NCBI GenBank assembly: GCA_964106915.2 | Contig: OZ066923.1 | DNA from: Podarcis gaigeae | Lineage: Eukaryota | DNA: 64,000 bases | Direction: 5' to 3' (one strand) | Shown here: in pieces, positions 1 through 52,189 of the stretch | Numbering within the stretch: the first letter of the stretch is position 1 | How the letters are laid out: every line of letters begins with the position of its first letter | Made by a program: the position numbers and the translations under genes | Notes under the pieces: model-generated | What the model was told of the DNA's origin: nothing | Seen by the model: the letters and a program-made list of their open reading frames with translations, nothing else | The model's database searches: none

Positions 1-2843
1 TCTTGATATGTAATGTTCTACACCCCCTCCATTGAAAGATACAGGTTGTAGACATAGGTAAATGAACCATATCTCATGAACACACTAGCCTCCATTGTGT
101 TTTAATTTTCTGAAGGAAACACAAATCTGGGTTAAGTGCCAAGACCCCTTGAATCTTGTGCTCTGCTCGGCAGAGACTGGGGTGGCCCATAACAATACTT
201 AGGGAAGTAGACACCTACTGTTCCAGCTGACTCTAAATGAAAGACTTAAGCTCCCTTATTGTGCAGTTAAGAATGGTGCAAAAGCAAAGCAAGGGTCACT
301 GGCATAACAGGTGCAGAGCATGGCCAGGCAAGCCAAGATATAGATCCTGCAGTTGACCCTGAGCTGCTATAAGGAGACGCTCTAGAAAGCCCAGCCCAGT
401 CCATTTGTAAAGAACGCGGGAAGGGAGCATGTACTGTTGCTCTTCATTTCTACCCACAGACTCTTTGCACTGCGTTCCCTACCTACAAGGACCTCTCCAT
501 TCATTTGAAGGGGAAAACCATGGTTTATTTGTTTCAGGCACCTAGTCCCCACCCTTTAGCCAAAAAGGCTCTTAGAGCAGCTTTCTAAAATCAGTACTAA
601 GATGGTCCTCTCCCTTGTTATCACCCTCTGAGTCTCAGGGCTCCAGAAAAGGGCCTCAGATGAGGATCTAAGAGTCCTAGTGAATTCATATTTTGCTCAC
701 AAGCCATTTGGATCTGAACTTTGCGACATGAAGTCGCCCTCTGCAAGCACCCCCAGGTACTAGCTTTATTGTTTTTGCAAGAATACCAGAAAAGTAGTGT
801 TTCCTGCACTGTGAAAATGTACCAGTGCCTCTGTGTGTGTAATCCTGACCTTTGTAGTGTTCTATAACATGATCAGTAACAGAGTCACAAACCCACAGGG
901 AACAGGTGTCACGTGGTTCCAATCAGACCAAGCGCACCAAAAAGGTCACTGTCATTTCTAGAATCTTTTGCAAAATGTGTTAGGATTAACCTTTTGAATC
1001 TCAGTTCCATTCTTCTGCCGAGATGCCTGTGCTAAACTGATTGCTATATATCTGAGAGATCTGCCAGATGAGCTAACTCCAATGAATAGTGTTGGGAAAA
1101 TGTTGGGTGTACCAGCCATGACATAACATCTGTCAGATCTCTTTAGCCATGTCAGTCATCACTTGAAGCTGCAATTATCAGGTGATGAGTATGCAGCTGT
1201 GGAACTAGAGGGACTGACAGTTAAAGCACTCTAGTAGTCTAGAATTCCCAGAATGGTTTAACAAACAATCCTTCACAGAGAATTCTGGGAGCTGTAGTTG
1301 GGAATAGGCGTCTCCTAACAACTCTGAGTGCCCTTAACAAACTACAGCTCCTAGAATTCTGTGGAGCAGGCCATGACTGTTTAAAGTGGTATCATGGAGC
1401 TTTAAATGGTATGAATATAGCCTTTGACTCATTTTCAACCATCCTCTTTTAACCCTCTTTTCTTCCCCACTTCTATCAGCATTTTCATACTTTTCTTCTT
1501 GCATTGCTCCAGGCCTCTTGGAACCATCTCCTTTTAAAACTTTCCCATCACTTTCTTCCTCCACTGCAGAATGCTCTCTCCTCTTGTGTGTTCATTTCTC
1601 TTGAAACCATGACTGTCATCTCTTCCTAACACCACAAACTTGGATTACTGACTCAGCCATCTTCCTGAAGCCAGATCTCCCAGTCACTCCATCTTAGAGC
1701 CCTCCCTTCTCCTTGTTCCACCACAGGTCTCTCTGTCCCCATATCTGTTACCGGTATATCCCTTTCCTCTTCCTTCCACATCTCTCTGCATCCCTGTACT
1801 CTCTCAGCCATTCCTCTTTCTTTCCCTCTGCCAGATCTTTCTCTGCTTCAATCTCTCTGTAACCCACTTCAATCCATTTCCCCACTCTGCATCACACACT
1901 TTCTCTTCTCTCTGTAGCACCACAGGCCCTTCTGCAGCTCCATCTCTGTTACTTCCCATGTTTTTACTTTGTCCCTCATCTCCCTGCTGTTCCCTTTTCT
2001 TCCTCCAGCCTGTAGCTTGGTTCTGCTTCTGTCCACCTCTGCATTAACCCAATTCTTCATCATAGACTGCAGCAGGAACATTATACAGGCCATGAATTCC
2101 CCCAGCAGCTCACACTGATGAAGGGATATCAGAACTATCTGAGCTGTGCAGCAGAAGAGTGGCTGGCAACAGCAGACTGGAGAAACTGGCTTTACCATGC
2201 ACATCTGATCCAGAGGAGTGCAGATGCAGAAATCCTTTCATTTATAGTTCCATTTTGAATGGACTTGAGCCGTCTCTGCATATTTCCAGAAAGGCCTGCA
2301 AACAATGGGTGTTTTTCACCCAAAGAACTGCCAATCTAGAAGAACTTGCAATCAACCAATGGACATTATGTTTTTCCACCGAAGGGCCTTTCTAAGTCCT
2401 GTTCTGTCACTGGTGGAAGATGCACCAGCATCATTTAGAAGTGTGCATAGGACACTAGAGGCTGAAAAGGATCCCTCCCTAAGGCTGCAATCCAACCCCA
2501 CTTTCCTGGTAGTAAGCTCCATTGAATTCAACAGAGCTTTGGGTTCAATAGCATTTACTTCTCAGTAGACATGGTTAGGATTGCACTGTAGAATACTAAT
2601 TTAGACCTGCAGACAATTCACTGTAAGAATTCAGCCAAAATTATCATCAACTGCTATGACCCAAAGTGAGCCTTAATGTTAATTCTTACTGCGCTCTAGG
2701 AATGCAGAAGCACCTGAATTCTTCATATAAAAACTAAAAAGCCAGTTGCCAAATATCCAGCCAAATGCTGCACATCATTTAAGTACGTAGGCGGACACAG
2801 AGGTTCAAGCCCATGAATGCAACAGATAAAAACAGGTTTATTA

Positions 2844-2992
2844 TTAGCTCAGTTGATTAGAGCATGGTGCTGATAATGGCAAGGTTGCAGGTTCAATCCC
2901 TGTATAGAATAGCTGCATATTCCTGCATTGCAGGGGATTGGAGTAGATTATTTTCATGGTCCCTTCCAACTCTACCATTCTGTAATTCTATG
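2844..2992 (+). mobile_element. SINE with tRNA-Ile-like head and CR1-type 3' tail
   Basis: TTAGCTCAGTTGATTAGAGCATGGTGCTGATAA...GGTTCAATCC (A/B boxes) followed by GGTCCCTTCCAACTC and an ATTCT(G/A)T tail. Confidence 0.8.
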
Positions 2993-5802
2993 TCCTCCAT
3001 CTAGCTTGCTGCCCTGTTTACCTGGTCTGATTTGCATTGTTGCTGGACCATGAACTCTGACATTATAGCCTTAAAAGTAACAGTGCTAAAACTTGATGCA
3101 TAAGAAACAAGGGAAAAGTCAGGAACGTAATCCTATCATATACATGTCTCCAAATCACACCTCTAATTATCCTTCCTAGATGGCTCATACTACTTTAATC
3201 ATGTCTAAAAGCACTGCTATAGCATAGACTGCAGTTGCTGGAGGTTCTTGGCAAGAATCCATCATAATCACTGCTGGATAAGGTTTTGCCACCTCTCTCT
3301 ATTTTAACATAATTCAGACATAACTTTGATTATTATTATTTAAAAGGCTGGATTTTTGTGATTAACTTCATTTCAGTATTCTGAAGGAGTCTCATCAATG
3401 AAACTGTTGCACACAACTGATGGATGAACGAAAAGTCTTTGCTCAGCAAGAGTCTTAGGAATTAATTATACTGTTGGCAGTGTTTTATGCTTTTAGGCTG
3501 CTTATTAATATTCATGTCTTGTTTCTTTTCATTCCCAGCACCTAAGATATTTGTGCACCTTTAAATTTCTGTTAACCATTTTTAAAGCAACAAATCCCTC
3601 TGTCTTTTGTTTACTTGCTGTGAGGAACACACTCATCCATGCTTGAGATAAAGGGGGAATTGGCATGTGTTACAATTTCATTTGGACTCTGTTCTGGAGT
3701 TCAAATGTTAATTCAAGGCACAGTAAAAGAAAAGAAAAAAATAAACCAATTTATTTTTACAAATTTTGTTTTTCCTTTCTAAAAGCTGCTTTTAAACTGT
3801 CCAACTTCACATCTCATTCAAATTCTGTGGCCTGGTTCTGGCATTTTTTAAGGCAGGCTGGCAAGAGTCTTCATATATATGAAGGACTTTCCCATGCACC
3901 ACACATGCACATAACATCACAGATGATGTTAGCATTCCACATGAATGCCCAATCACACAGATGCTTAATTTCATCAAAAATGGAGGGGAGATTACATTAA
4001 AGAAGGGAAGAGGGTGAACCTGATCTTCCACCATTCAAGGACTGTAAATATTTGATCTGCTCCTCCAGGAATAGGGTGGCAGTAGCTTCAATTAGGAGCT
4101 GCTTTCTTGCTGCAACAAGTTTCCTGCCCATTATGTTTGTACATTGATCAAACTAACAGATCAGGGCTAATGGCATGTTAATAATTAAGGGGAGGTTGCA
4201 TCTGTTTCCCCAGACTAATCATCTCTTGACAGCCGGTGCACAGGAATAAATTAGAGATGATCTCAAATTCTATGGAAAAGAAATATTCCAAAGCGACAGC
4301 AGATTCTCTGTTTCATAAAGTTGCTGGCCTCTTATGATTCAGTCGTTGATTAGCACTGGCAAGAAAGCCAGTTATTCTGCATGTTATTCCATTGACATTG
4401 ATAAAGACCAAATGACTCCTCCCACCACCAGCACGTGGTCCCATTACTGTAAAATGTGTTGTGCATGTGTCATTTGCACATATCCATTGACTTCTGTAAA
4501 AGCTTTTGCTTCTTTGCCCCTCTAATCTAGTATATTGTGAAAAGAAGCAGTAAAGTGCTGCCATAATACTGGGGTGTATTTTCGTTGCTTAGATGATACA
4601 GAAGCCACAGTGAATATAGAGTGACTCCCATTTAATGGATAATGGACGACTCCCATTATCTATAGATTAAGCCTTTATTTCCTAGTGTCTTTCTCTTCCC
4701 AATTGTATCCTGTCATATTGAATAGAGAAGACTCATGTCAAAGTTTGGCTGAAATTCAAGCATCGCATTAAATTCCAGAGAATGGCTTCTGTTGCTTCTC
4801 TCAATGTCTATAATCAGTTACCCCATGTAATTTTGAGACTGTGTTATTCAAAGGAGTTTTTACAATAATATTTCCTTATTGTGGGATTAATGTTACTAAT
4901 TGTGGTTGGAAATCTCCCCTTTTCTTGCTTAGGGTTGTCCCAGCCCTAGATAGGGCTTTGTGTTGAATGTCTGCTCTGACTTCCCTCTCCTGAAACTAAT
5001 TAAAAGGTGACTCTTTCCAGTTGAGCTGCTGTTAACGTTTTGCTCCAGCTGCCCCACACAGGATCCTCTACAATTGCATCCCAAAACTCAAACAAGACAA
5101 GCTTTAGCCATTTGCCATGAGTCATTCTTTATTAAGCTCTTGGTTTTTGTGCCCTTATCTTGTATTCTAGTCAGCCTTGGCTTTAGTTATTTAAGAAGTC
5201 TCAGAATAGCATCTCTTAAAGTCAGGGCATATTTAGACCCAAACCATGTTTATTCCTTTTTAATGTGTCATTCTACGTAGCCAATCCCAGCAGATTCCTT
5301 GTAGCCAAGCTTTCTTTTAATAGGCTAAAGCAGAGATGCAGAATAAATGTGACTATAATAATGTTCCCCTCCCCCAAAAAATATTGGAAACAATTCCTGA
5401 CTGGACCAGGCAATGAAAACAATGACCTCTCCGAATTGGATGCCGCCCCCACAACAATCTGGGGAAATGTTATAAAAATGCTACTGCGGCTGCACTGGGC
5501 TCTCTACACCCCCCCCAAACCCCAGTAACAACTTGGGAACAATAAAGTGTGTGGACGGGGTGGCGATTCTGATAATGCTGTGCTCAGCACCCCCACCCCG
5601 CCCCACCCTCACCTCTCCACGCACACACTTTCCCAAAGCCCCTCCCTGGCCAGAGCAGCTTCCCATTGCTTCCTCTAGGAGGCCAATGGGCACAGTCAAT
5701 CTCAGTCTCCCTTCTCCTTTCAGAAAGCTATTCTATGAGCATCCAAAGCAGAGGAGGTGTAACAGAATCAGCATGTTTCCCGCCCCAAACCCCAAGGGGT
5801 GG

Positions 5803-6172: not shown

Positions 6173-7401
6173 GGTGGCAAAACTTGGGCAAAAAATTCTT
6201 GCATTGTAGGAGGGTCAGACTACATGGGAATAACAGTACATGGAAGAGCGAGTTCTAGCCAAGCCTGGGTGCCATTCTCTAATGAGCCAGTGGGACAACT
6301 CACATGCTTAATGTTCAGTAGATGCTGAGCCGAGGCTTTAGCCTCAGAAGGCCAATAATTTCCTTTCTCCTTTCTCCTTCAGTGAGCTTAGGTCATGGGT
6401 AGCTGACATGTCACGCTCCAGATGTTGGGGCTGCAATTTCCATCATCTCTGACCACTGGCTGGAGCTGCTGGGAATGGGAGTCTACAACATCTGGAGGGC
6501 ATGGCTTTGGGTGCCCATGGCTTAGGCATGAAATCTAGCGACAGGTAAGTCAAGTCTCTCAAAACTGAGACAGGTGCTACACATTGCCGCAGCAAGTATG
6601 AGTTCCACAAACCATATTTGCCAGGGTAACATGAGTATGGTTTATAAATACTTATAAATAAATGCTGGAATTGAGTAGGGGCGGAGTGAGAGAGCATCTG
6701 CACAGAGAATCAGTGGGTGTGAGGTATAGGTGATTTTGGTAATATTTGATTGGCCTTGTGGGAAATACGATGCTAAACTAAGTAGGCCCTTGGTCTGATC
6801 CTGCGGAACTCTCCTTATATTCTCAATTCTTCACCATTCTCTCTGTTTCTCTTCCACACAGGCTTCCTCCATAACCAGCCTTATTTCTATTCTTGGGGTC
6901 TGGCTGTGGAGAAAATGAAACATGTTCTCCACTAAAACTGCTTTCCCAAACTCACACTAGTGCTAGAAGGCAAACATTCCTCATAAAGTGTGGTTCCGGC
7001 CTAAAGCTTCCCTCACATTTTTGCTAGTTAATAAATGCTATTATCCTGTCCACCACCACCCGCCCCCGTTCTGTGTCTTTTCCAGAAAAGCTTTTTCTGC
7101 AAAGAAGAGCCTGGCTGTTTGCCTTCGACAAAGCCAGAAGAAAATGGAGGAGGGGGAGAGAGAAGAGATGACAAAGCAAGGGCTTTTAAGAAGAAAAATA
7201 GCTACAGCGAGCAATTCCATATGCGTGTGTGTGTGTGTTGCACTTGCAATTTGTTTCAGGTTTCCAAATTATGCTTAGATTGGATCATATTTCAAATCAA
7301 ACATGCAAAATAACAGCTTGTGTGTGTACATGCATGTGAGACTATTAGTACAATGTATGAATGCTCTTATGGGGGTAAAGCTAGTGTTGTTGTTCTTGTT
7401 G

Positions 7402-7477: not shown

Positions 7478-7876
7478 TAGTTATATAAATAGAATCCTGA
7501 AAGACAACAAGGAAACGCCTGCAAAAACACTCATCCTTAAATGTCAACATGCAGTGGAAAAAGTGAAGTCATTTTAAAAGTCAGATGCCCAGGTAGTACA
7601 GTGAAGGCACTGAAAAGAAAACTCAAAAGGCCAAAGTTCAAATCCTGATGGGAAGAAAAAGATTCATGGATGGAGAGCATTTGAAAACTGCCATCTTGTT
7701 GATTCAGTTTGGCATTGGATTTGGCAAATTTCCCCCTCCCTCAAAAAAACGCACACACAAAAAACCACCACAATGCATTAGCACCTTCTCCTTTTATATG
7801 AAATTTGAAACCTGTTGTATTTCTGCTGATACTAGAAGCATGTTAAGATCCCAAGACCTCCCCCAATACCTTTGCA

Positions 7877-9050
7877 TGTTAAGATCCCAAGACCTCCCCC
7901 AATAAATAAAGACACAATTGACACGGAATTTAGTTTAAGGTTATTGGCATAATTTTGGCCACAACTTTATTGATTACAGATCGTGAGTGGTTTGCTTAGG
8001 CATTGGTTCCCGACTAGCTGCACCTGAGCTCAGCAGGACACCATTGACACCTGGACTCCAGCAGACGTCAGTGAGGGAAAACATCCTGGGGGAGCATTGG
8101 ACCAGGTTCAGACTCAAGATCACTCCAGATGCTCCCAGAGACTCTGGCGTGGCCCTAACCCCTGGAAGAGGATCGGACAAAAGGAAGGCGAGGCCCGGAA
8201 TTCCTTTAACAGAATACCCTTTTGCGCATTGGGAGGGGCAGGTGTGACAACCTCCCCTCCCCTCCACCTTGAACCAATGCCTAACCGCCAAACCTTACAA
8301 AGTTGTGACGATTTGCTATGCAGCAGGCGAAGCCAAGTGGCACCAACCAATCAGCCAAGTGGGAAAATTCCTACCAGGCCCCTGTCCCAAGAACAGATGA
8401 CTCACGACGGCATAGCAAGGTCATAAAGGTAAAGGTACCCCTGCCCGTACGGGCCAGTCGTGTCCGACTCTGGGGTTGTGCGCCCATCTCACTTAAGAGG
8501 CCGGGGGCCAGCGCTGTCCGAAGACACTTCCGGGTCACGTGGCCAGCGTGACGAAGCTGCTCTGGCGAGCCGGCACCAGCGCAGCACACGGAAACGCCGT
8601 TTACCTTCCCGCTAGAAAGCGGTACCTATTTATCAATTTGCACTTTAGGGGTGCTTTCGAACTGCTAAGTGGGCAGGAGCTGAGACCGAACGACGGGAGC
8701 TCACGGGGGATTCGAACCGCTGACCATGCGATCGACAAGCCCTAGGTGCTGAGCATTTACCCACAGCGCCACCTGCGTCCCTATAGCAAGGTCATAATGA
8801 ACCCTAAATGTAGGGAGGGTGGGCGGGTGATCCGGTGCATGAGGGGAAAAGAGGAAGCTCAATGCAATGTGCAGCGGTATATATGGGTCCCTCAGTTAAT
8901 GCATGAAACCCATTGGCCAGAAATACCCCAGCAACCGAGGGACCACCAATCGGGTTGTTGTGGCTATCCAATCGCTCCCACCCACAACAGCAGTGCGGTC
9001 AGTCTTGATTATCTCACCGCAATGCGTGCGGGGATCCTCCCCAATTTACA
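7877..9050 (-). mobile_element. LTR-like element copy A (structured-R family), interrupted by a Sauria SINE
   Basis: Minus strand reads TGTAAA...TTAACA; TATA near 8878-8884; AATAAA 7966-7971; homologous to 12490-12937, 13575-14195 and 47553-48330; no TSD found. Confidence 0.6.
8427..8782 (-). mobile_element. Sauria SINE, full length
   Basis: Head and (ACCTTT)n tail present; 15-bp TSD ATAGCAAGGTCATAA (8412-8426, 8783-8797). Confidence 0.93.
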
Positions 9051-12000
9051 CAATTTGTGATCCTCCCCAATTTACAAATTTATGAACCTTGCCTGCTTTC
9101 CTTCCTCTTTACCTAGCAGTGCAGGTAGCCAGGCTGGAGACCTCTCTGTTCCTCCCTCCCTCCTTGATACTTTGAATACATCAAAGGCAGCATTCAAGGC
9201 AGTAGGTGCTTCGGGGGATGCAGTTTCCAGGGCACCTGAAGTCTATATTTAAGGACTCAGTCGCCTTTAAGAACTACATTTCCTGGGCAGTGCTCAAGCT
9301 GAAGGGCCTTTTCCCTTCATTGGGAAAGGCCCTTCAAAGCCACCATATTATCTGGGCAGTCTGTTTAATGCAGAGCTTGGACCTTGGGGGCAAATGCCAC
9401 TATCTTCCCAGCATTACAGGCTAGACTAGTTTGTATTCTGAGCTAGGCCTTGGGTATCATTGCAGCTTGGGGTATCAGATTTAATCTAAACAACCCCCTG
9501 CCTTTGAATCCGGGGTAGTGGGAAAACTAATACGAGAATTCTGTTGAATATGAAAAGTATTTTGACTATCTGTATCAGCACTAGTTAGTATATACATATT
9601 TTACAATTGTGATTTAAAAAACCGTTTCTGCAAGTTGCTTTGCCATAAAAAAGTGTAAAAAGATGGCTCTGTTTGGGAAAGGCTTATTTCCAGAGTATTA
9701 TATGCTCTCGTAAACTATGCCCTGTGATATACTGTGGGCCCTTTCTGTTTATTAGATCTACACAAAGCCTCATACTTCAAAATGGCAACAATAAACTTTA
9801 TGGAGATGATTAAATTGCATCTAATTCCACCAAACCGTTTTTGACCAGCCTTCACCTTTGGCTGACAGTGCTCTAAAATATTTATATGGGCCGGGATTTA
9901 TACCTTAACTGCATGCAAGTACAAAACCAGCTTAGCTTAGGGGATGAGTTATTTAGGAAATAGGTCCTTTAATCCTCAAAAGAACACCGAAATCAGCAGC
10001 CTGTCATGAATAGCTGTCACTACTCTACTGCTTAGACCTCATATCTTTGAAAAGGATCTAACTACCAAGATTAGGTTTGACAACTCTCGTGCAAGGATCC
10101 TCAAGCGCTTTTTTCAATCTTGAGAAACTTAAGGTTGTTCAAAAGTCTGCAGACATGCAGTTCAACAGGTATGATTCTGCATCCCTATGAAAAGACACTC
10201 AGTGTTAGTCTTTACGGTGCCACAAGACTCCTTCGTGAATTCAAGGACAGGTCTATTCAAATTAGCACACTGTCATTTTTATAAACTGCGGAAATGTCTC
10301 CTGTGGTCCACAGTCCTCACAATAACTCAGACATCGAGGGATGTGTGAAATGGGCCATCACAGATGCAACGCGACAGGCAAAACATTTCCGCATCACCTC
10401 AAACACAATGCCTTACAATGTTGTTGGTTCATGCATTCAGCTGACTGACATCAATCGTACAATTACCAAGGTGTGACGCCCCATTTGCATTGTAAGGTCT
10501 GAAAGACCCTCTGTTTCAGCAGCTGGTCATGTGGAGGGAGGGCTCTCTCCATCTGAGAAGGAACTCTGCTTTTGCCGACTGCATAGTTTTAAGAGCTCCC
10601 AATACTAAATGCAAGGAAGTCAGGGTACGCCACACACACCAAACAAACATACAGGGCCAGATTTTAAAAAATTAAGGGATGTGCATGCAACATGCGAAGA
10701 ACTCAATAACTTCTTTCTTCTCTGTAAAATGGTGAAAGATGCTTTTCTTAGTGCATGGATTTTTATTTGAAAATCCTCAAGAAACGCAGTATCATTGAAG
10801 CGACAGATGTTATTCCTTGCATACAGCAAACTGACTTTGTTTATAAGTCCTCACCTTTCTTTCTTTTTACTAAAGCAGACAACTCTGTTGAGTTCTAGAA
10901 AGGTGACAGCACTGTCTAAAACAGGAAGATTGCAGAAAAGGATATCCCAGGCTGTGTAGCAAGAAGTGCTGACTTGATATGTTGAAATCGCTCCGAAATC
11001 CCTGCTATTAGGCTTGAATGATTTGGGGTGTCATGGAAAGGCAGCAAGTAGTTCTTTATACGGGGTTGTTGTTTTCCATTTTTCCTGCCTATGCAGGAGA
11101 GAAGTGATGGTGGGAATTTTCTGCCTGGAGAGTCAAAATGACTTCACCAGCCTTGGGTACCAAGGTTGGAGAAAGCATTTGCTCCTCTGGCTTGGGCTGC
11201 AAAGTGTCTTGCACTGACTTTGCACTACGCAGTTCATATTACTTTGAAAAGTCGTGGGCTCCTTCACTGGCAGCTGTAGTTTGTTACAGGTGCTGAGAGT
11301 GGCTAGAAGACACCTAGTTCCTTCACAGAGCTACAGTTCTCAGAGTGCTTTAACAAATACCTCTTCACAGAGAATTCTGGGAATTGTAGTTCTCTGAGGA
11401 TATTAGAATAATAGAAGCATAGAACTGTTGATTGGGTAGGGAACCAGAGGGCTATCTAGCCCATCCTGCAAGGCACCGTCCCCCATCCAATTTAAAATAT
11501 TTTTGGACTCTGATTAACTTTGCAAATATTCTAGCAGTTTTATTGCTGCACAACTCTCAGCACACCTAGCAAACTACAGATCCCAGAATTATTTGGGGGA
11601 AGCCGCAACTGTTTAAAGTGGTATTATATTTTTTTTAAAAATGTATAATGTAGCTGGAACCTTGGTAAGAGATTTCACTCAGCCAAAATTCTCTAGTGTT
11701 TTTAAAGTGGTAAGTGGAAGGAAGACACTGCACCACTCTTTAAAAAAAATAAATCTTCCAAACCCAATAAAGAAGCACAGGATTAGCAGAAAAAGAATTC
11801 CTTAATAAACAGATGGTGATACTGCAAGTCATTTCAAGATACTAACAAACATACTTGTATATTTATTTTTATTTTCTATCTAGCTTGAGGCAATGATACA
11901 TTTGGCTTTTCATTTGACATTCATAAGATCACTTTATGGACATTATCATTCCTTGTTCTCAGTTTGAGTGAGAAAGTGCCCTCAGGACAAGCATATTTTC

Positions 12001-12489
12001 ATGCCAGAATTCTTAAAGGAATATGCCCTGCCTTTCTTAGATAAAAGAAGTGCCCCAGATCCTGACACTAGACCTCTGGGTTCACTATGGAATTATTGCA
12101 TTCTGCTCTTTCAACGCAGGCTGGTGAATGGACTGAACAACCTTGCGAATTTGGGACTGAATGACAAGGGGACATTGGTCTGCAACATGTTCACAATGCA
12201 GGTATCTGCAATGTTCTGTGCAATTAACAAAATCAGCGAAGCTTTCATGATGAAATGGCCAAGAGGAAACAAGTTGGAAGGGGAAGCAAATCACATGAGA
12301 GGCTTGGATTTCACTGTATACTTGATTTTCAGAGGGATTTGGGCATGCCTATTTTCTTGATATGGCACTAGGAAATCTACGAAAAAAACCATCCATTTTA
12401 TCCGGTGTGCACAAAGTGGTGAGTGACAAAAGAGTTTTGCAGACATTGGTTAATTTGCATAGTTAATGTGCTAATGTGGCAGTTGAGTC

Positions 12490-12937
12490 CCTGGATTCCT
12501 TTAATGGAATACCCTTCACGTAGGGATGGCGAGAGCATTCTCCCATCCCTATCACCTGAACCAGCGCCTATCCGCAACCTTACAAGTTGTGATGAATTGC
12601 TACGTGGCAGGCGAAACCCAAATGGCAACAGCCAATCACCCAAGTGGGGAAATTCCTGCCATGCCCCTGTCTCAACGATAGACGACGGCATAGCAAGGTC
12701 AAGCACAAAGCCCTAAAAGTGGGGAGAGGTGGGCAGGTGTTCTGAATGCATGCACCGAAAGAGGAAGCTCTGGGTCACGTGCCTAGGTATATATAGGTCC
12801 CTCGGTCCATTTAGACTGCACCCCACTGGCCAGATTAATCCCAGCAACAAGGGACCTACCAATCGGGTGTTGTGGCTAACCGATCTATCCACCCACAACA
12901 CAGGGTGTCAGTCTCCAGGTTTCACCGCAACACGTGC
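12490..12937 (-). mobile_element. LTR-like element copy B (truncated)
   Basis: Colinear with 8195-9030 once the SINE is removed; TATATATA near 12789. Confidence 0.65.
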
Positions 12938-13574
12938 CCTCTTTGAGGGAGGATATGATTTCTCTTTCCAAATGAAGGATTTTAAACAGTTTTGAATCTG
13001 ACAGCCTCCCTTGTAACCCATCTGTAGGCAATTATTTTGCTCTTCAGAACACATTTCCTCATTCTTGAATAGGTGGCATTATAGAATCAGTATTGCTAGT
13101 AATGGAGATGATGCATAATCTTTATTATCATGGGCTGTGTGCTCCTGGCACTCTGAAGACAATCATGCTCTGGGGATAATGTGTACAAAATGTTTAGGGG
13201 TATTCTTATTTTCCTACTCATATTGAAATACTACTCCTTAATGAGGCCAAACCTAGATTCACAAAATGTTTAGGAGTATGCCCCCCCCCCCGAAAAAGCA
13301 CTGCATATATGTGTGTATACAACTTAAAAACAACTAGCAATCCATCTGCTTTCTTTCTGACTTAATGTTTTCTGTTCCTTGAAAAAACACCTTAGTAATT
13401 TTATCAAGATATTAAAACAAGCATATCAAAGTTCCAATTGTACTTTTTTAAAAAAACCCAAACCCTTTCTTTGACACAGTTATGTTCTATTTGCAGTGTA
13501 GTTGTGGAAGTTAAGAAGTGCTGTGCTTAAATTTCTAGAAAGTTGCAATCAGTGGCTCAGTCAAATTGTAATTG

Positions 13575-14195
13575 TGAGTGACAGGAGCCTTGTGGGCACC
13601 TGAACCAAGTGTGAGTAAATAACACTCAGGACAGGTGTTGGTGAAGACAGGCCACGTTTTATTGGCTACAGTGGTACCTCAAGTTACAAACGCTTCAGGC
13701 TACAAACTCCGCTAACCTGGAAGAGTTACCTCGAGTTGAGAACTTTGCCCCAGGATGAGAACGGAAATCGTGTGCCAGCTGTGCAGCGGCAGCAAGAGGC
13801 CCCATTAGCGAAGGCACGCCTCTAGTGAAGAACAGTTTCAGGTTAAGAATGGACCTCCAGAATGAATTAAGTTTGTAACTAGAGGTACCACTGTACTGTG
13901 AAGAAGAAGGGCTGGCATGGCACTGGGTCAGAATCTGTAAGACTTCTGATCTGAAACCCAATAGACCATCCCAGCATGGCTCCTGGGGAATGCCATAGGA
14001 GTGGACCAGCCTAGATGGACCCACCATGGTACATGTCATGTGACTAGAATCTGCCTGGTAACCTGAAATGAGGGGCATCAGGTTCGGCCCACGGGAGCTC
14101 AAGCCTGGAACCAGGACACCTTCTCAAGACCCCTTATGAGGACACCCCTTATGTTTTGATCCTACCAAATGCCATTCCCATCCAAGTTGTGACAA
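13575..14195 (-). mobile_element. LTR-like element copy C (diverged), interrupted by a MITE
   Basis: Shares GGCCAC..TTTATTG (AATAAA on minus, 13658-13663) and AAGTTGTGAC (14184-14193) with copy A; ends approximate. Confidence 0.5.
13669..13893. mobile_element. Tc1/mariner (Tigger-like) MITE
   Basis: CAGTGGTACCTC...GAGGTACCACTG TIRs, TA TSD. Confidence 0.88.
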
Positions 14196-15746
14196 ACGGA
14201 TATGCAGAATGCTGTGTGGCTCTGGAATAGAGCAGCCATGCATTCTGCTTTTCAGAGGACATCCTGTGTTTGAAAAAGTGCTCTGTTTTAAGGGCTGTCT
14301 GGTCCAAACCTGGTTTAAAATGGCAAATCTTCAGGTGGCTTTAGAAGAGGATTAGACAAATAAGGCTGTCAACAGCTGCTAGCCATGCACTGTGTTCCAT
14401 CTCTACTGACAGGATACCTATGAAGTCATTGCTGGGAATCACAGCTACTCCTATTTTCCTACATGTTCTGGAGACGCCTTCTCTGAGCCTGGGCAGTTCT
14501 ACCTCGTTTATGATGGATATTCTAGCGACTGAACATTCCAGTCACTCGAATGCTGCAGAGATGGAATAATTTACATTATCCCTATCACAGGCTGATTGGG
14601 TGGAGGCAAAGCTTGGGCAGTAAATCACAGAGAGCTGCACCAGGCAGCTTATTTTCCGGGGGAGTCCAGTGGTCTCCCAGGAGCCATTCATTGATGAAAT
14701 CATTTCTCACTGCGCATTAGCTGTTCCCTGTTAGCACACAGCTCGGGCATTAATCTCCTGTGTGTTTAGGTCTCTGTCTAGACTTGCAGTTTCTAATTTC
14801 TTTCACGGTCAAACTTCATTAATGTAGGCAGCCAGGAGGACATCTAAAATATGCCGATAATGAAAAGTTCCGATAAACAAGATGGATTAAACTGCAATAT
14901 TACATGTAAAACAAAGACAACATTGTAGTTGGTTTCTAGGAGTTTGGGGTAACTGATATTCAGTATCTAAGAGTTAAACTAAAATCTAAACATCAACCTT
15001 AAACTAATCCTCATAATTCATCAGTGTAGTGCAAATTCCGTATAATATACATATTTTTATACAGTTTTGGGCAATATACACATTTTCCCAAGCACTTTCC
15101 CATAATGAGATGCATATTTGCTTGTTTTTTAAAAAATAAATATGTGTATATCTACACACACTTCCCCCCAATATGTGCACTTCTGCAGACATTGGCTGAA
15201 GAACTCCCAAAGCTTGTAGAAAGATAGCTGCACTTTGTAGAAAGATAGCTGCACTGGTTCACGAAGTGCAAAGGAGATAATTTCTGATTAAAATGCAAGC
15301 AGTTCTAAAGTTCTCCCCCATCTCAGCCTTACCATGTTGCCTTACACTGATATGTTCCGTGAATAGGGATATAGTTCTGCAAGCAGAGATATGGCAGGCA
15401 TCCACTATCTTCACTTTCCAGAAACAGTTGAATACATTTTTGTTCTGGCCAGATTTTGCAGCTCTTGGTCATGAGTATCTATTTTGTACTGTCTTAACAG
15501 CATCAGCTGCCTGTTTGTGTTTTAACTGCTTTTTTACAGCTGTTATTGCACATCATCTTGAAATGATTGTGTAGAAGGTGATTAATTAAATAATAATAAT
15601 AATAATAGTAATAATGGTCCTTCCACTCAAAACACTCAAAATTTACTGCAACAGCATTTTTGGAATGCAGGACTCTAACCCTTCTCTTCATTCTATGATA
15701 AAAAGAGCCATCACCTGCAATTCTCAGGGGAATTTACTGGATGAAA

Positions 15747-15908
15747 GAATCATAGAACCTTAGAGTTGGAATGGACTTTGAAGGTGTTCTAGTCCCAGCT
15801 CCCTGCAATGCAGGAATCTCAGCGAAAGCATCCATGACAAATGGCCATCCAACCTCTGCTTAAAAACCTCCAAGGAAGGAGATTCAACCATCTCTTGTGG
15901 TCGTCTGT
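15747..15908 (-). mobile_element. CR1 LINE 3' end
   Basis: Minus strand encodes VESPSLEVFKQRLD, followed by CCTTCCAAC-like motif and TTCTATGATTCT tail; a smaller CR1 tail lies at ~11405-11470. Confidence 0.85.
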
Positions 15909-17647: not shown

Positions 17648-17872
17648 AGTGGTACCTCAGGTTACAGGTTCTTCAGGTTACAGATGCTTCAGGTTACAGA
17701 CTCCGCTAACCCAGAAATAGTACCTCGGGTTAAGAACTTTGCTTCAAGATGAGAACAGAAATCGTGCGGTGGCAGCGGGATGCCCCATTAGCTCAAGTGG
17801 TACCTCAGGTTAAGAACAGTTTCAGGTTAAGAACGGACCTCCAGAATGAATTCTTAACCCGAGGTACCACTG
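17648..17872. mobile_element. Tc1/mariner (Tigger-like) MITE
   Basis: Same family as 13669-13893; TIRs present, right TA intact. Confidence 0.85.
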
Positions 17873-20378
17873 TACAAGCAGTCACAACTCAGAAATTAGC
17901 AAACACATTTTCCCTGCACAGGCTTGAAGGAGCAGGGAGAGAGATCTCATAACAAACTACAGTTCCCATGATCCTTTGTGGGAAGCCATGACTGTTAAAG
18001 TAGTATAAGCTTTAACGGCTGTGGGTATCCACCTGTCTTAAGAAACAATGGAGTGGGCCTCTGGGGGTGAAGTCAAACAAGGAGGAAGAAGAAAGCTGCC
18101 ATCTACACAAATAGACATGTTCCCTCACAAAGGCCAGGGAACATTACATTTCAGTACCCATCCCCATAGCAATACAAAAGCAACTGCCAACTGCAAACCA
18201 AGGTGATGACTTGGGGAGGCCATATCAGGGCCAATTGCTTGCTAATGCACCAAGTCTTCCAGGAGGACATGCAAACCAGATCTTCCTGATGGTGATGGGA
18301 CAGGTAAAGGGGCCAAGAAGGACAGGAGAGTGTTGGAGAAGGATTATCAGGAGCACAAGGGGATGCACTTTTGCATGGTCACAGCACACCTGTGGAAAGT
18401 GAGTAGGATTGTCCACCAGGTCAGTCCCACCTCTGCGATCCAAGTGTAGCCCATTGGTGGCCTCCACATATTTGTTGGACTACAGTTCCCATCATCCTTG
18501 ACCACTGGCCACGTTGGCTGAGACTGGTAGTCCAATAACATCTTTGAGGGTACCATTGCTGCCTATCTCTAGTTTAGCACAACGCCTGAAATGGAAGACT
18601 ATGCATGCACAGCTGAAAAGGCACAGGCTCTCCACACAATCAGGAGACATGATCTCCCTCAAAGTCCTCCAGATCTCTGTCCCTCACCCTGCCGTTGAAA
18701 GTCCAACTATCATTTACCTGCTCTAAGGTCAGCCAGTTAGACTTCCTCATTCGCTCTGAACCAGCTGCACCTTGCATTTATTTCCCTTATCTCAGTCAGC
18801 TGGGAAGAACAGAGAGAACTATGCAACAGTAAAAGGAAATCTAAATTGCACCTAGTGCTTAAGGCTCTGAGAGGAACATTTAGAAGAGAAATATCAGCAA
18901 TTTCATAGGAAATATTACATCTATTCCCACTTTCGTTCTCTGGGGAGAACTTCTAGCAGGGGTGAGGAACTGGATCCTGAAGGAGTGCTAGGCCCAGAAC
19001 TGGACCACCTTCCATGGGTGGCCTGGGTGCCCCACACAGGGTCAAGGAGGGTGCTTGCAACTCCTGGAATCGTGAATGTATTTATTTATTTTAATAACAC
19101 CCAGGTGTGAAATTCAGCCTTAGGAGTTTTAAATGTTGTTTGGAGACCTACTATATTGTTGTTCAATGGACAGATTGAGGCTGTCCTCCATCCCTACCCT
19201 GTACATCACTCCATTGTTTTTAAATGGACAAATAAAGCAATATTTGAGAAGTTAGATCTGAAATGTACAGCCCTGTACAATACAGTAAATCACCAACAGG
19301 CGCAGCCCACCACTGTTCCTTGTTGCTTCTCTTTGGCACAGTGTAATGGTGTGTGAGGTTCAGTCGCAAAAAGACTGCACTTGGTCAACAGCCTGTCCTT
19401 ACCAGTCATAGACTTTGCTTCCCACCCCCCTAATCATTTCTGCTGACACCCATGGTGTGTGTGTGGGGGGGGGGGGGCTCAGGCAATTCAAATGTTGAGC
19501 CTTCTGCCCTAGCCAGAATGTGTATGTGGTGGTGGCATCTCCGCTGCTCCCGTCCTCGGCAGCCCTTATCTAGGATTACTCTGCTCACCAGTAAATTGGC
19601 CCATTTTAGGGCATGCATTTACTTGGTTGTAAGGTCCATTGGAGTCAATGCAATATACTTCTTCTGAAGCATGCATAGGACTGGGCTGCATGCTTCCGAG
19701 CTATGCAAGACAAGAGACCTAAATAGAATGTTATAAAGTAAATCAACAGCTCTGTTCCTCTGGAAGCCCACTCTGCAATTTGAGAACATAAAGCTGGGCT
19801 CTATATTATAGGGTAAGGGAGACGAGAAAAACCCCTTAGCTATATTTAAGACGAATCTTCAAAATATTTTGCGTCCAGAGCTGCACATCGTGCATGTTTC
19901 TGGGCTAGCAGCTTCCAGCTGCACATACTATAATTTTTGTGGCTACAGCAAATGATACGTTATACTTAACGAATGAGTTGGGGACAAAAGATCTATTGCA
20001 GATGGTTTGTGTTTTTCCTTAGTGACTCAGCAGGGAAAGCAAACCTATGCCTGTAGGATACCAACTGCATTTGCTTGTTTGTGCATGTGGTGAGCGAGAG
20101 AGAGAGAGAGAGAGAGGCTCCCAGAATATAATGCTCACAGGTGATGGAGTTTACAAGTGCGTCTACATATTGGCCCATCCAGCAGTGCTGACAGTCATAG
20201 AGGAAGTGGAGCAGGAAACTCTTCGCAGAAGGACTTCCTGTGGTGGGTGATTTAGCTCTGATTACTTTTGGGGCACAACAATACTTTGCTCCCCTGTGCT
20301 CTTTTTTCTTTTCTATCAGGATCTTGGCCCAGGGAGCACTTTTCTGATTTGGTGGGTTACAATGGACCAATTCAGTTC

Positions 20379-32780: not shown

Positions 32781-33144
32781 GTCTGGGATAATGGATGTTG
32801 TATCCCAACAATAGCTTGTGGGCCATGGATTTCCCCATCTCTGGTGTGGTTACTAATAGACTGGATAGGAAAAAACAGCCTTGAGTTCAATATAGTCAAG
32901 AATTATGGAACTTCTAGGATCTTTAGACTTAGGAAGAAAAAACCTCATAGATCAAAATTATGTCTCCTATGGCGCATCAGGTGATCCGAGTTTTGGTGTG
33001 TGGCAGCAGTTGCTGTGGCAGCAGTAGCTCCAAGTGCCGTTTGCCAATTATACATCATCTTACATCTTCAACCTTTACTACAAGATGAGGGCCTGGCCAC
33101 TGTTGTCCATGCATCTGTAACCTCAGTAACAGACTACTGTGATA

Positions 33145-33385
33145 CAGTGGTACCTCGGTTTACGAACGTAATCCATTCTGGGAGTCCGTTCTTAAACCGA
33201 AAGTGTTCTTAATCCGAGGCGCGCTTTCCCTAATGAGGCCTCCTGCTGTCAGTGCCCTTCCACCGTTCAGCTTCCGTTCTTAGACCGAGGTAAAGTTCAC
33301 AATCCGGGACACTGCTTCCTGTTTTGCGGAGTTTGTAAACTGAATAGTTCATAAACAGGGCTGTTCTTAAACTGAGGTACCACTG
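33145..33385. mobile_element. Tc1/mariner (Tigger-like) MITE
   Basis: CAGTGGTACCTC...GAGGTACCACTG TIRs. Confidence 0.85.
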
Positions 33386-35366: not shown

Positions 35367-51504
<16,138 letters not shown>

Positions 51505-52189
51505 AACTGTGGAGCTAAATTATTAGCTTATTGTCCAAGCAAGCTGGCAATGTCTAATCACAAGGAGCCTAGTGCAGAAGTCTTACAATGGAGCTTAGTT
51601 ATTCCCTAGTCAGCCTTCTTTCTGCTGCCTGCCTTCACTCCAAAGAGCAGCTTCTGGTCTGTCACATGTCTCAGAGGACAGGACAGAAGGGATTTTGTAG
51701 ATGCCCATGAAGTCAGCTTGCTATGATGTCAGACATGTAAATGTACCACATTGCTGCTTTACCTTTGGAAAAACATGTGTAAAAAGCACAGCAATGAAGG
51801 CGACGACTCTGTGTTTGTGACACCAGCGGTGCTTGTAGCGCAGAGCAATTTCATAGGGGAGGGGGGATATGTGGTGCAACCAAAGTAAAGCAGTATGTTT
51901 TATTCCCATTGATCAAAACAGTTAGGCACATGCTTAATAGAATGAGAAAATCAGGGACCATGTCAGATGCTGCTGTTGCTGCTGATTTATCTACCCATCA
52001 CCTTGTGGTCCCAGGGCAGCTTATAACATTAAAACACAGAAGTTTTAAAAAACTTACATGTTGTGTTCACCTCCATGCCTTTTTATCCTTAGCCCCCCTT
52101 TTTTGGCTTCATAACCCCCCACATTGTTTGCTTTTTATTCAGCTGTGTTTTTATTCCATGACACAGAAGGCTTACCTTTTCCAAATGTA

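Follow-up and report, generated by a model that had tools for sequence, protein, structure and literature searches.

The 64-kb stretch of Podarcis gaigeae DNA analysed here, referred to below as the window, carries on its minus strand a G-alpha gene at 35390-51550 that is presumably transducin-like, a name taken from sequence motifs. Its exons lie at about 51.4, 43.8, 42.5, 37.0, 36.6, and 35.4 kb, and the Pfam G-alpha domain was recognized in 3 of the 121 open frames scanned (129 frames were listed). Interspersed repeats of several kinds are also found. A tRNA-headed SINE of roughly 360 nt recurs across the window, and the example within one of the copies described below is presumably Squam1-like. 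The length of Squam1 in lacertids matches this ~360 nt (PMC10058329, in part), a comparison made by length and not by letters. An Rfam tRNA match at 2838-2911 (39.5 bits), with partial similarity to 15746-15817, is perhaps a SINE head or a tRNA pseudogene. The window also contains four copies of a MITE family whose inverted ends are 25 nt long and flanked by TA (13667-13895, 17648-17876, 33136-33385, and 37196-37444), and palindromic repeats occur at 41556-41634 and 44908-45010, the latter with partial copies at 6398, 18455, 24005, 36411, and 42616.

Four copies of another repeat, A to D, form one diverged non-coding family on the minus strand, judged from their sequences (Table 1). A and B are 74-78% identical across both their R and U3 parts, and A and D align with E=1e-15 over 47555-48000. 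C is weakly aligned (E=0.01 against a profile of A and D), with two collinear diagnostic motifs present in order. The pattern TCACAACTT-N5-25-GGCRYTKG occurs four times in the window, in A-D only (0.00 by chance), and AATAAA-N1-4-GTGGCC occurs twice, in A and C only (0.03 by chance). Profile searches of the window returned no fifth copy, the best other match being 38491-38594 at E=0.012. An original prediction, made from the letters of this DNA, had proposed that these copies conserve a covarying RNA structure between a TATA box and a poly(A) signal; every sequence it quoted was located at the coordinates given, and of the copy spans it drew, that of A includes the SINE and that of C includes the MITE.

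Table 1. Coordinates of the four repeat copies and of the elements recognized within them
Feature	Position	Strand	Remarks
Copy A	7877..9050	-	TG...CA ends; ~800 nt excluding the SINE; in four organisms, contigs from the flank break at 7895-7901
AATAAA and P0 3' arm of A	7958..7971	-	AATAAA 7971-7966, P0 3' arm 7970-7958; 5 of 6 hexamer bases predicted paired
3' arms of A	7989..8009	-	P1 arm 8009-7996, 6-bp helix arm 7994-7989
Hairpin H3 of A	8197..8219	-	Loop ends in UAAA
Hairpin H2 of A	8231..8261	-	8 bp, one bulge, 4 bp
5' arms of A	8271..8294	-	6-bp helix arm 8294-8289, P1 arm 8284-8271
Invariant motif of A	8297..8309	-	5' arm of P0; the linker of the original prediction
Domain 2 of A	8313..8418	-	Closing stem P2, 9 Watson-Crick pairs in A
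SINE in A	8427..8782	-	tRNA-headed; 15-nt target-site duplication 8412-8426 / 8783-8797
TATA box of A	8878..8883	-	CCAAT boxes at 8916-9045
Copy B	12473..12960	-	U3, TATA 12795, domain 2, motif, P1 5' arm, H2 12521-12551, H3 12492-12514; ends approximate
Copy C	13575..14250	-	Motif 14192-14184, P1 14175-14158 / 13935-13917, AATAAA 13663; 5' end not found
MITE in C	13667..13895	.	25-nt terminal inverted repeats, TA at outer ends; between P1 and AATAAA
Copy D	47544..48318	-	Full length; motif 47925-47917, P1 47908-47895 / 47646-47633, H3 47836-47814; candidate ends, 4-nt repeat at chance level

The copies are likely solo long terminal repeats (LTRs) of a lizard retro-element, a unit of about 800 nt. 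On the minus strand, A runs from a TG end through CCAAT boxes, a TATA box at 8883, some 540 nt, and AATAAA at 7971 to a T-rich U5 and a CA end. Its termini, TGTAAAT...CTTAACA, are short inverted repeats, as solo LTRs have; the 3' end matches YNYAACA and the 5' end agrees with TGTTRNR at five of seven positions (motifs from PMC3601003, in part). From spacing, transcription of A would start near 8856, and the distance from TATA to AATAAA, about 540 nt with the SINE discounted, suggests an R region of that length. The statement that the minus strand carries both signals is borne out in A; of the two, B has TATA alone and C only AATAAA, at the position homologous to that of A, and D has neither there. 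D, which is sense-oriented within intron 1 of the G-alpha gene, does carry an AATAAA elsewhere, at 47684, which weakens the idea, now set aside, that this sense-oriented copy lost its poly(A) signal.

The boundaries of the copies are less regular. D offers only a candidate pair of ends, and those of B and C were not found; no target-site duplication accompanies A or C, and the two 4-nt candidates of D are as expected by chance. At the right end of A, a tandem duplication of ~26 nt (9033-9084) spans terminus and flank and may have erased the target-site duplication. The left end bears a 31-nt direct duplication (7838-7868 / 7874-7904) that looks private to this assembly or allele, as a template switch or artefact. 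Further information comes from contigs of 20 runs, from eight organisms, with parts of 7700-13100, depths being taken from four runs of related organisms (X1, X5, X10, and X17). The outer copy of the 31-nt duplication differs at seven letters in X1 and otherwise in the remaining three, and a SINE-free joint (8411>8783, 371 nt skipped) occurs in contigs of all four. B stops after H3, its 3' part missing; as contigs of X10 and X17 exit the window at 12472, this loss would fit a later deletion. Just inside the U3 end, A (9030-9042) and B (12937-12949) have a 5-bp hairpin with a 3-nt loop before a common GCACG, all five pairs differing; at the candidate end of D the hairpin is longer, and those of A and B are only doubtfully homologous.

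Searches for the remainder of an element gave negative results. No retro-element domain was found in 121 of the 129 open frames of at least 85 aa, and neither a coding remnant nor an internal region in the window or in the further loci examined. The 24 loose contig ends listed, of 5,745, are dominated by SINEs and MITEs and include no primer-binding site (PBS) or polypurine tract (PPT). Pattern scans of viral contigs for relatives gave four chance matches lacking similarity beyond the pattern and, in a second scan, none, as did metagenome contigs. The length class (rGmr1 mean 695, Sushi 572), the AATAAA near the 3' end, and the TG...CA ends resemble those of vertebrate Gypsy (Sushi, rGmr1) and ERV LTRs (PMC3601003, in part), but the ends of A fit neither Gypsy motif exactly and there is no coding region by which to place the family. 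Missing target-site duplications in A and C would also suit the remnant of a split repeat from a tyrosine-recombinase (Ngaro-like) element, rather than an integrase-type LTR, with the same role for the RNA. Elements of that type carry A and B repeats (PMC9210276, in part), recombination between which could leave a solo unit; yet the TG...CA ends of A, the fit of its 3' end to YNYAACA (PMC3601003, in part), and the size of the unit (388 bp for A+B of one Xenopus Ngaro versus ~800 here) make such an origin very improbable.

Within this framework, the sequences of A, C, and D establish a real, covarying long-range stem, P1. All 14 pairs are Watson-Crick (WC) in A, with 12 WC, one G-U, and one mismatch in D, and 15 WC, two G-U, one mismatch, and one bulge in C, as the original prediction had described for these three copies; B has the 5' arm only, the 3' arm being absent. 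That the pairings are common to all four copies, as more widely claimed, fails for P1 in B, and likewise for H2, which is largely broken in D, and H3, which is not seen in C. Only 1, 27, and 19 of 20,000 random partners score as well as the true ones in A, C, and D, respectively, and by duplex energy 1, 8, and 87 of about 31,900 windows do so. A 3x3 table of pairing scores is diagonal-dominant, every P1 arm scoring best with its own partner in both directions; in terms of duplex energy, 5' arms of other copies suit the 3' arm of C equally well, which counts against the specificity of the arms. Between A and D, two double changes, one change to G-U, and one broken pair are seen among 13 pairs, and between A and C, three, one, and one among 12, the covariation evidence here and below coming from three to four sequences only. 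C and D have a common U-G pair where A has U-A, and P1 scores higher on the minus than on the plus strand in both (12 versus 9 in C, 12 versus 10 in D). The whole-domain folds of C and D are no better than those of shuffled sequences, and P1 is not formed in them.

In A, perfect 14-bp arms enclose 261 nt, much as in a MITE, and the stem might be what is left of the terminal inverted repeats of a defunct DNA transposon lying inside the LTR, an outcome that the original prediction had itself named as fatal to its case. A search for direct repeats of 4-9 nt within 3 nt outside the P1 arms of A, C, and D found none. Moreover, pairing continues outward in A and the arms covary between subfamilies, which leaves such an origin extremely improbable.

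Covariation is also seen in hairpin H2 of A and B. Its arms had been described as swapped between the two copies; the hairpin is confirmed in both, and the arms differ by compensatory substitutions rather than by a swap. In the least-change register there are two double changes and one broken pair among 12 (P about 0.01-0.03 under independent substitution), and in a register anchored on the bulge, which is conserved, eight double changes. H2 is largely broken on the minus strand in D. Hairpin H3 is found as predicted in A, B, and D, with no double changes and hence no covariation; single changes lead to G-U in A and D and to one C-A in D. Its loop ends in UAAA in A (8205-8210), B (12500-12505), and D (47822-47827), B reading AUUAAA, a variant of the poly(A) signal.

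Domain 2, originally described as closed by a stem in A and B, has that stem, P2, in both, its six common pairs being identical and offering no covariation; two of the six are broken in D. In C a different hairpin of unrelated sequence occupies the place of domain 2 (14204-14248; z -4.7 plus, -3.4 minus). The 5' arm of P2 has two possible partners in A (8313-8418) and B (12597-12696), a possible switch or trace of duplication. Taken from A to B, 32 pairs of H2, P2, P2a, and H3 include one broken against eight expected (P=0.001), the helices having been chosen after both copies were seen, and from A to D, 37 pairs include seven broken and two doubly changed, which is not significant given the pairs that changed. 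RNAalifold on A and B gave strand-dependent structures with H2 misaligned, and helix registers were set by hand. A pairing specific to D (48121-48092 / 47589-47652), absent from A and B, is not told apart from chance. The original proposal, a family resembling LTRs in which the long stretch from TATA to AATAAA is structured, is supported in P1 and H2, which covary, and was too broad in its remaining helices. The search of Rfam that it had called for gave no match to the structure: in the whole window Rfam 15 reports only the tRNA at 2838, with nothing under E=0.18 in the regions of A-C and D. If they hold, P1 and H2 alone would amount to an uncatalogued structured RNA in a common repeat.

Which strand is folded is a further issue. 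Mismatches had been said to become G-U wobbles only on the minus strand; in fixed registers, G-U to A-C oppositions on that strand number 7:1 in A, 1:1 in B, 3:2 in C, and 4:7 in D, so that the statement is upheld for A, and for P1 in C and D, and not for the total of 15:11 (p=0.56). Pairings equally good on both strands had been named as evidence against the proposal, and here the result is adverse, the whole fold of A (7950-8425) having z of -2.88 on the minus versus -3.26 on the plus strand. Whole-domain z is significant only for domain 1 of A on the plus strand, the hairpins of B, and the hairpin of C. What favours the minus strand is the ratio in A together with the outer helix P0 of that copy, P1 in C and D, the wobble pairs that copies have in common, and the promoter and poly(A) motifs.

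These strand comparisons are what an explanation at the level of DNA would lead one to expect, in which the pairings have no RNA function and descend from an old inverted duplication whose arms are kept alike by template switching or conversion during replication. The plus strand folds as well as the minus, the overall ratio is 15:11, P1 in A is WC at 14 of 14 positions, and some of the edge pairs occur in copy A alone. If conversion were at work, perfect arms would be expected; instead, the U-G pair in P1 is common to C and D, and A, C, and D have another in the outer helix P0 described below. Several separate helices are kept, the bulge of H2 is conserved, and the arms lie 260 nt apart, all of which makes this explanation unlikely.

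The wider family was viewed through contigs matched at 80% likeness, for which summed depth is not a copy number and the arms are not phased. In X1, summed depth reaches ~200,000 at 8299 and 45,000 at 7991, compared with 1,400-4,100 in the enclosed loop (8041, 8124, and 8197), 1,600 at 8908 and 6,000 at 8996 in U3, and 46-48 in the unique flanks. The block of the 5' arm (8299) is 20- to 276-fold deeper than the loop (8041) in all four runs, and the 3' arm (7991) stands far above both loop and U3, X5, X10, and X17 giving the same order as X1. The two paired blocks are thus the most widely shared, recurring in many more contigs than the loop they enclose. A one-base gap at 7991, found in 13-25% of the depth, mirrors the shorter 5' arm of B, with the two arms unphased. 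At five places in A, 86-100% of the multi-copy depth reads another letter; with the effect on pairing read by eye, one of these gives a better pair, one gives G-U on the minus strand only, and three lose edge pairs.

Next to P1 lies the linker that had been called near-invariant in all four copies. This is confirmed, as its 9-mer occurs exactly four times in the window, once in each of A-D (0.96 by chance). TATA lies 203 nt from the motif in A and B alike, and the position of the hexamer is 337, 300, and 319 nt from the motif in A, C, and D, the order in A being TATA, motif, stem, AATAAA. The original prediction had missed that, in A, the motif is complementary to the segment containing the poly(A) signal. 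The two form helix P0 (8309-8297 / 7970-7958) with 13 bp, of which 11 are WC and two G-U, at a predicted pair probability of 0.96; random partners reach its score in 4 of 20,000 cases, and the energy is -17.3 kcal/mol on the minus versus -11.1 on the plus strand. With P0 outermost, then the 6-bp helix, then P1, the predicted duplex of A has 33 bp in all, and positions 2-6 of AAUAAA have a predicted unpaired probability of at most 0.09. Removing the motif leaves the hexamer still mostly paired in the prediction, and burial by itself is therefore no specific feature.

P0 is complete only in A. In C and D it is at chance level (14,091 and 2,249 of 20,000), with 6 of 9 and 7 of 11 WC in its register and two A-C oppositions common to both, and B is without the poly(A) segment. 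No double changes are found, and one U-G pair is common to A, C, and D. The motif is constant in C and D although its partner segment is not. The words GTTGTGG and CCACAAC of the P0 arms also build a U3 hairpin in A (8956-8989) and B (12868-12900). A switch between 5' and 3' LTRs by capture in U3 was considered and not found, as the motif of B does not pair with U3, and repression of the U1 type was dismissed for want of a common donor-like site of at least 7/9 in R.

Where AAUAAA lies in R, the signal in the 5' LTR has to be repressed, which HIV-1 does by a stem-loop among other means, while in HTLV and BLV the signal lies upstream in U3 and a fold brings it to the cleavage site (PMC12789967, in part). 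The original prediction had compared the structure with the deltaretroviral Rex-response element (RRE). Like it, the family has a long R (>200 nt there) and a long-range stem bearing on 3'-end formation; in the deltaretroviruses AAUAAA is upstream in U3, whereas in this family it falls at the 3' end of the folded part, and no Rex-like protein is known here. On the minus strand A has a single AATAAA, at 7971 and within the structure's 3' arm, and U3 of A and B has none. With AAUAAA in the presumed R and in the 3' arm, control of the poly(A) site in the manner of the HIV-1 poly(A) hairpin is to be favoured over the RRE analogy. In that hairpin, too, AAUAAA lies within R, is predicted to be base-paired, and this pairing is proposed to repress the 5' LTR site (PMC12789967, PMC2664473, both in part); it differs in that the partner in the lizard family, ~330 nt upstream, closes a domain of several hairpins, that R would be ~540 nt, and that the whole arrangement is predicted and found only in A.

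The reading preferred here, to which a probability of roughly two in five may be given, is that the long-range stem and the motif would weaken the poly(A) signal in R of the first LTR, a geometry like that of HIV-1 at long range. P1 would be the conserved core, looping out ~260 nt between its complementary arms and, once folded in the cell, setting the invariant 9-base motif beside the poly(A) signal ~300-340 nt downstream. In elements of the A type, the motif would pair fully with the poly(A) segment and cover AAUAAA. The covered signal would be weakened, so that the first LTR would be read through and the RNA of the element would escape premature cutting; selection for this would have acted in the active elements. 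That a remote, invariant anti-signal strand controls the poly(A) site in this manner is a tentative model, which accounts for the first LTR and not for release of the second from the same block. A stronger form, also doubtful, would make this a superfamily of lizard LTRs with an R of ~540 nt, more than twice the deltaretroviral length, whose distal 350 nt are one domain clamped by the 33-bp duplex that buries AAUAAA.

The constancy of the motif where its partner is not conserved is better explained by another interpretation, in which R is selected as RNA for a structure that serves as a protein-binding scaffold in export, packaging, or dimerisation. The motif would then bind its partner as a single strand, and its match in A would be secondary. 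The motif is invariant in 4/4 copies, P1 and H2 covary, the H3 loop ends alike in A, B, and D, and stem-loops of the R region act in RNA processing of MLV (PMC2664473, in part). The 13-bp match in A is, however, improbable as a chance event (4 of 20,000) and in register with P1, the enclosed loop is the least shared part in the contigs, and the element has no known internal region or protein; a scaffold is rather unlikely on this balance. Alternatively, the stem could serve reverse transcription by shortening a very long R and aiding first-strand transfer. An R of ~540 nt would probably give an unusually long strong-stop DNA, and the stem spans most of distal R; this proposal leaves unaccounted the outer arm that covers the hexamer in A, and it appears quite improbable.

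Control of the poly(A) site, as preferred above, would have both precedent and novelty. The residual conservation of long R regions in HML (HERV-K) elements and MLV is tied to stems (PMC3601003, PMC2664473, both in part), and thus structured R regions are of a known kind; unlike the lizard stem, these are short local hairpins, and that of HML4 is downstream of AATAAA. The predicted long-range form, with AAUAAA under the outer helix of a 33-bp duplex, appears to be new here. The ENE of retrotransposons (Evade) is similarly a structured element near the RNA 3' end, but no U-run of at least four occupies a common position among A-D and Rfam gives no match, so that reading was rejected, as was a hammerhead, the core motifs of which are not in workable order when inspected by eye. 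The literature consulted contained no paper on the family or its structure, Dfam, Repbase, and most subscription papers being outside its scope, so that the family may already be catalogued; nor did it describe a solution to poly(A) repression in reptile elements, solutions being known for few retroviruses.

If the interpretation is true, a covarying long-range clamp in a high-copy family would represent a new form of repression of the 5' signal. Thousands of natural variants would then serve as a mutational library for cleavage and polyadenylation tuned by structure, and the finding would bear on the behaviour of solo copies within host introns.
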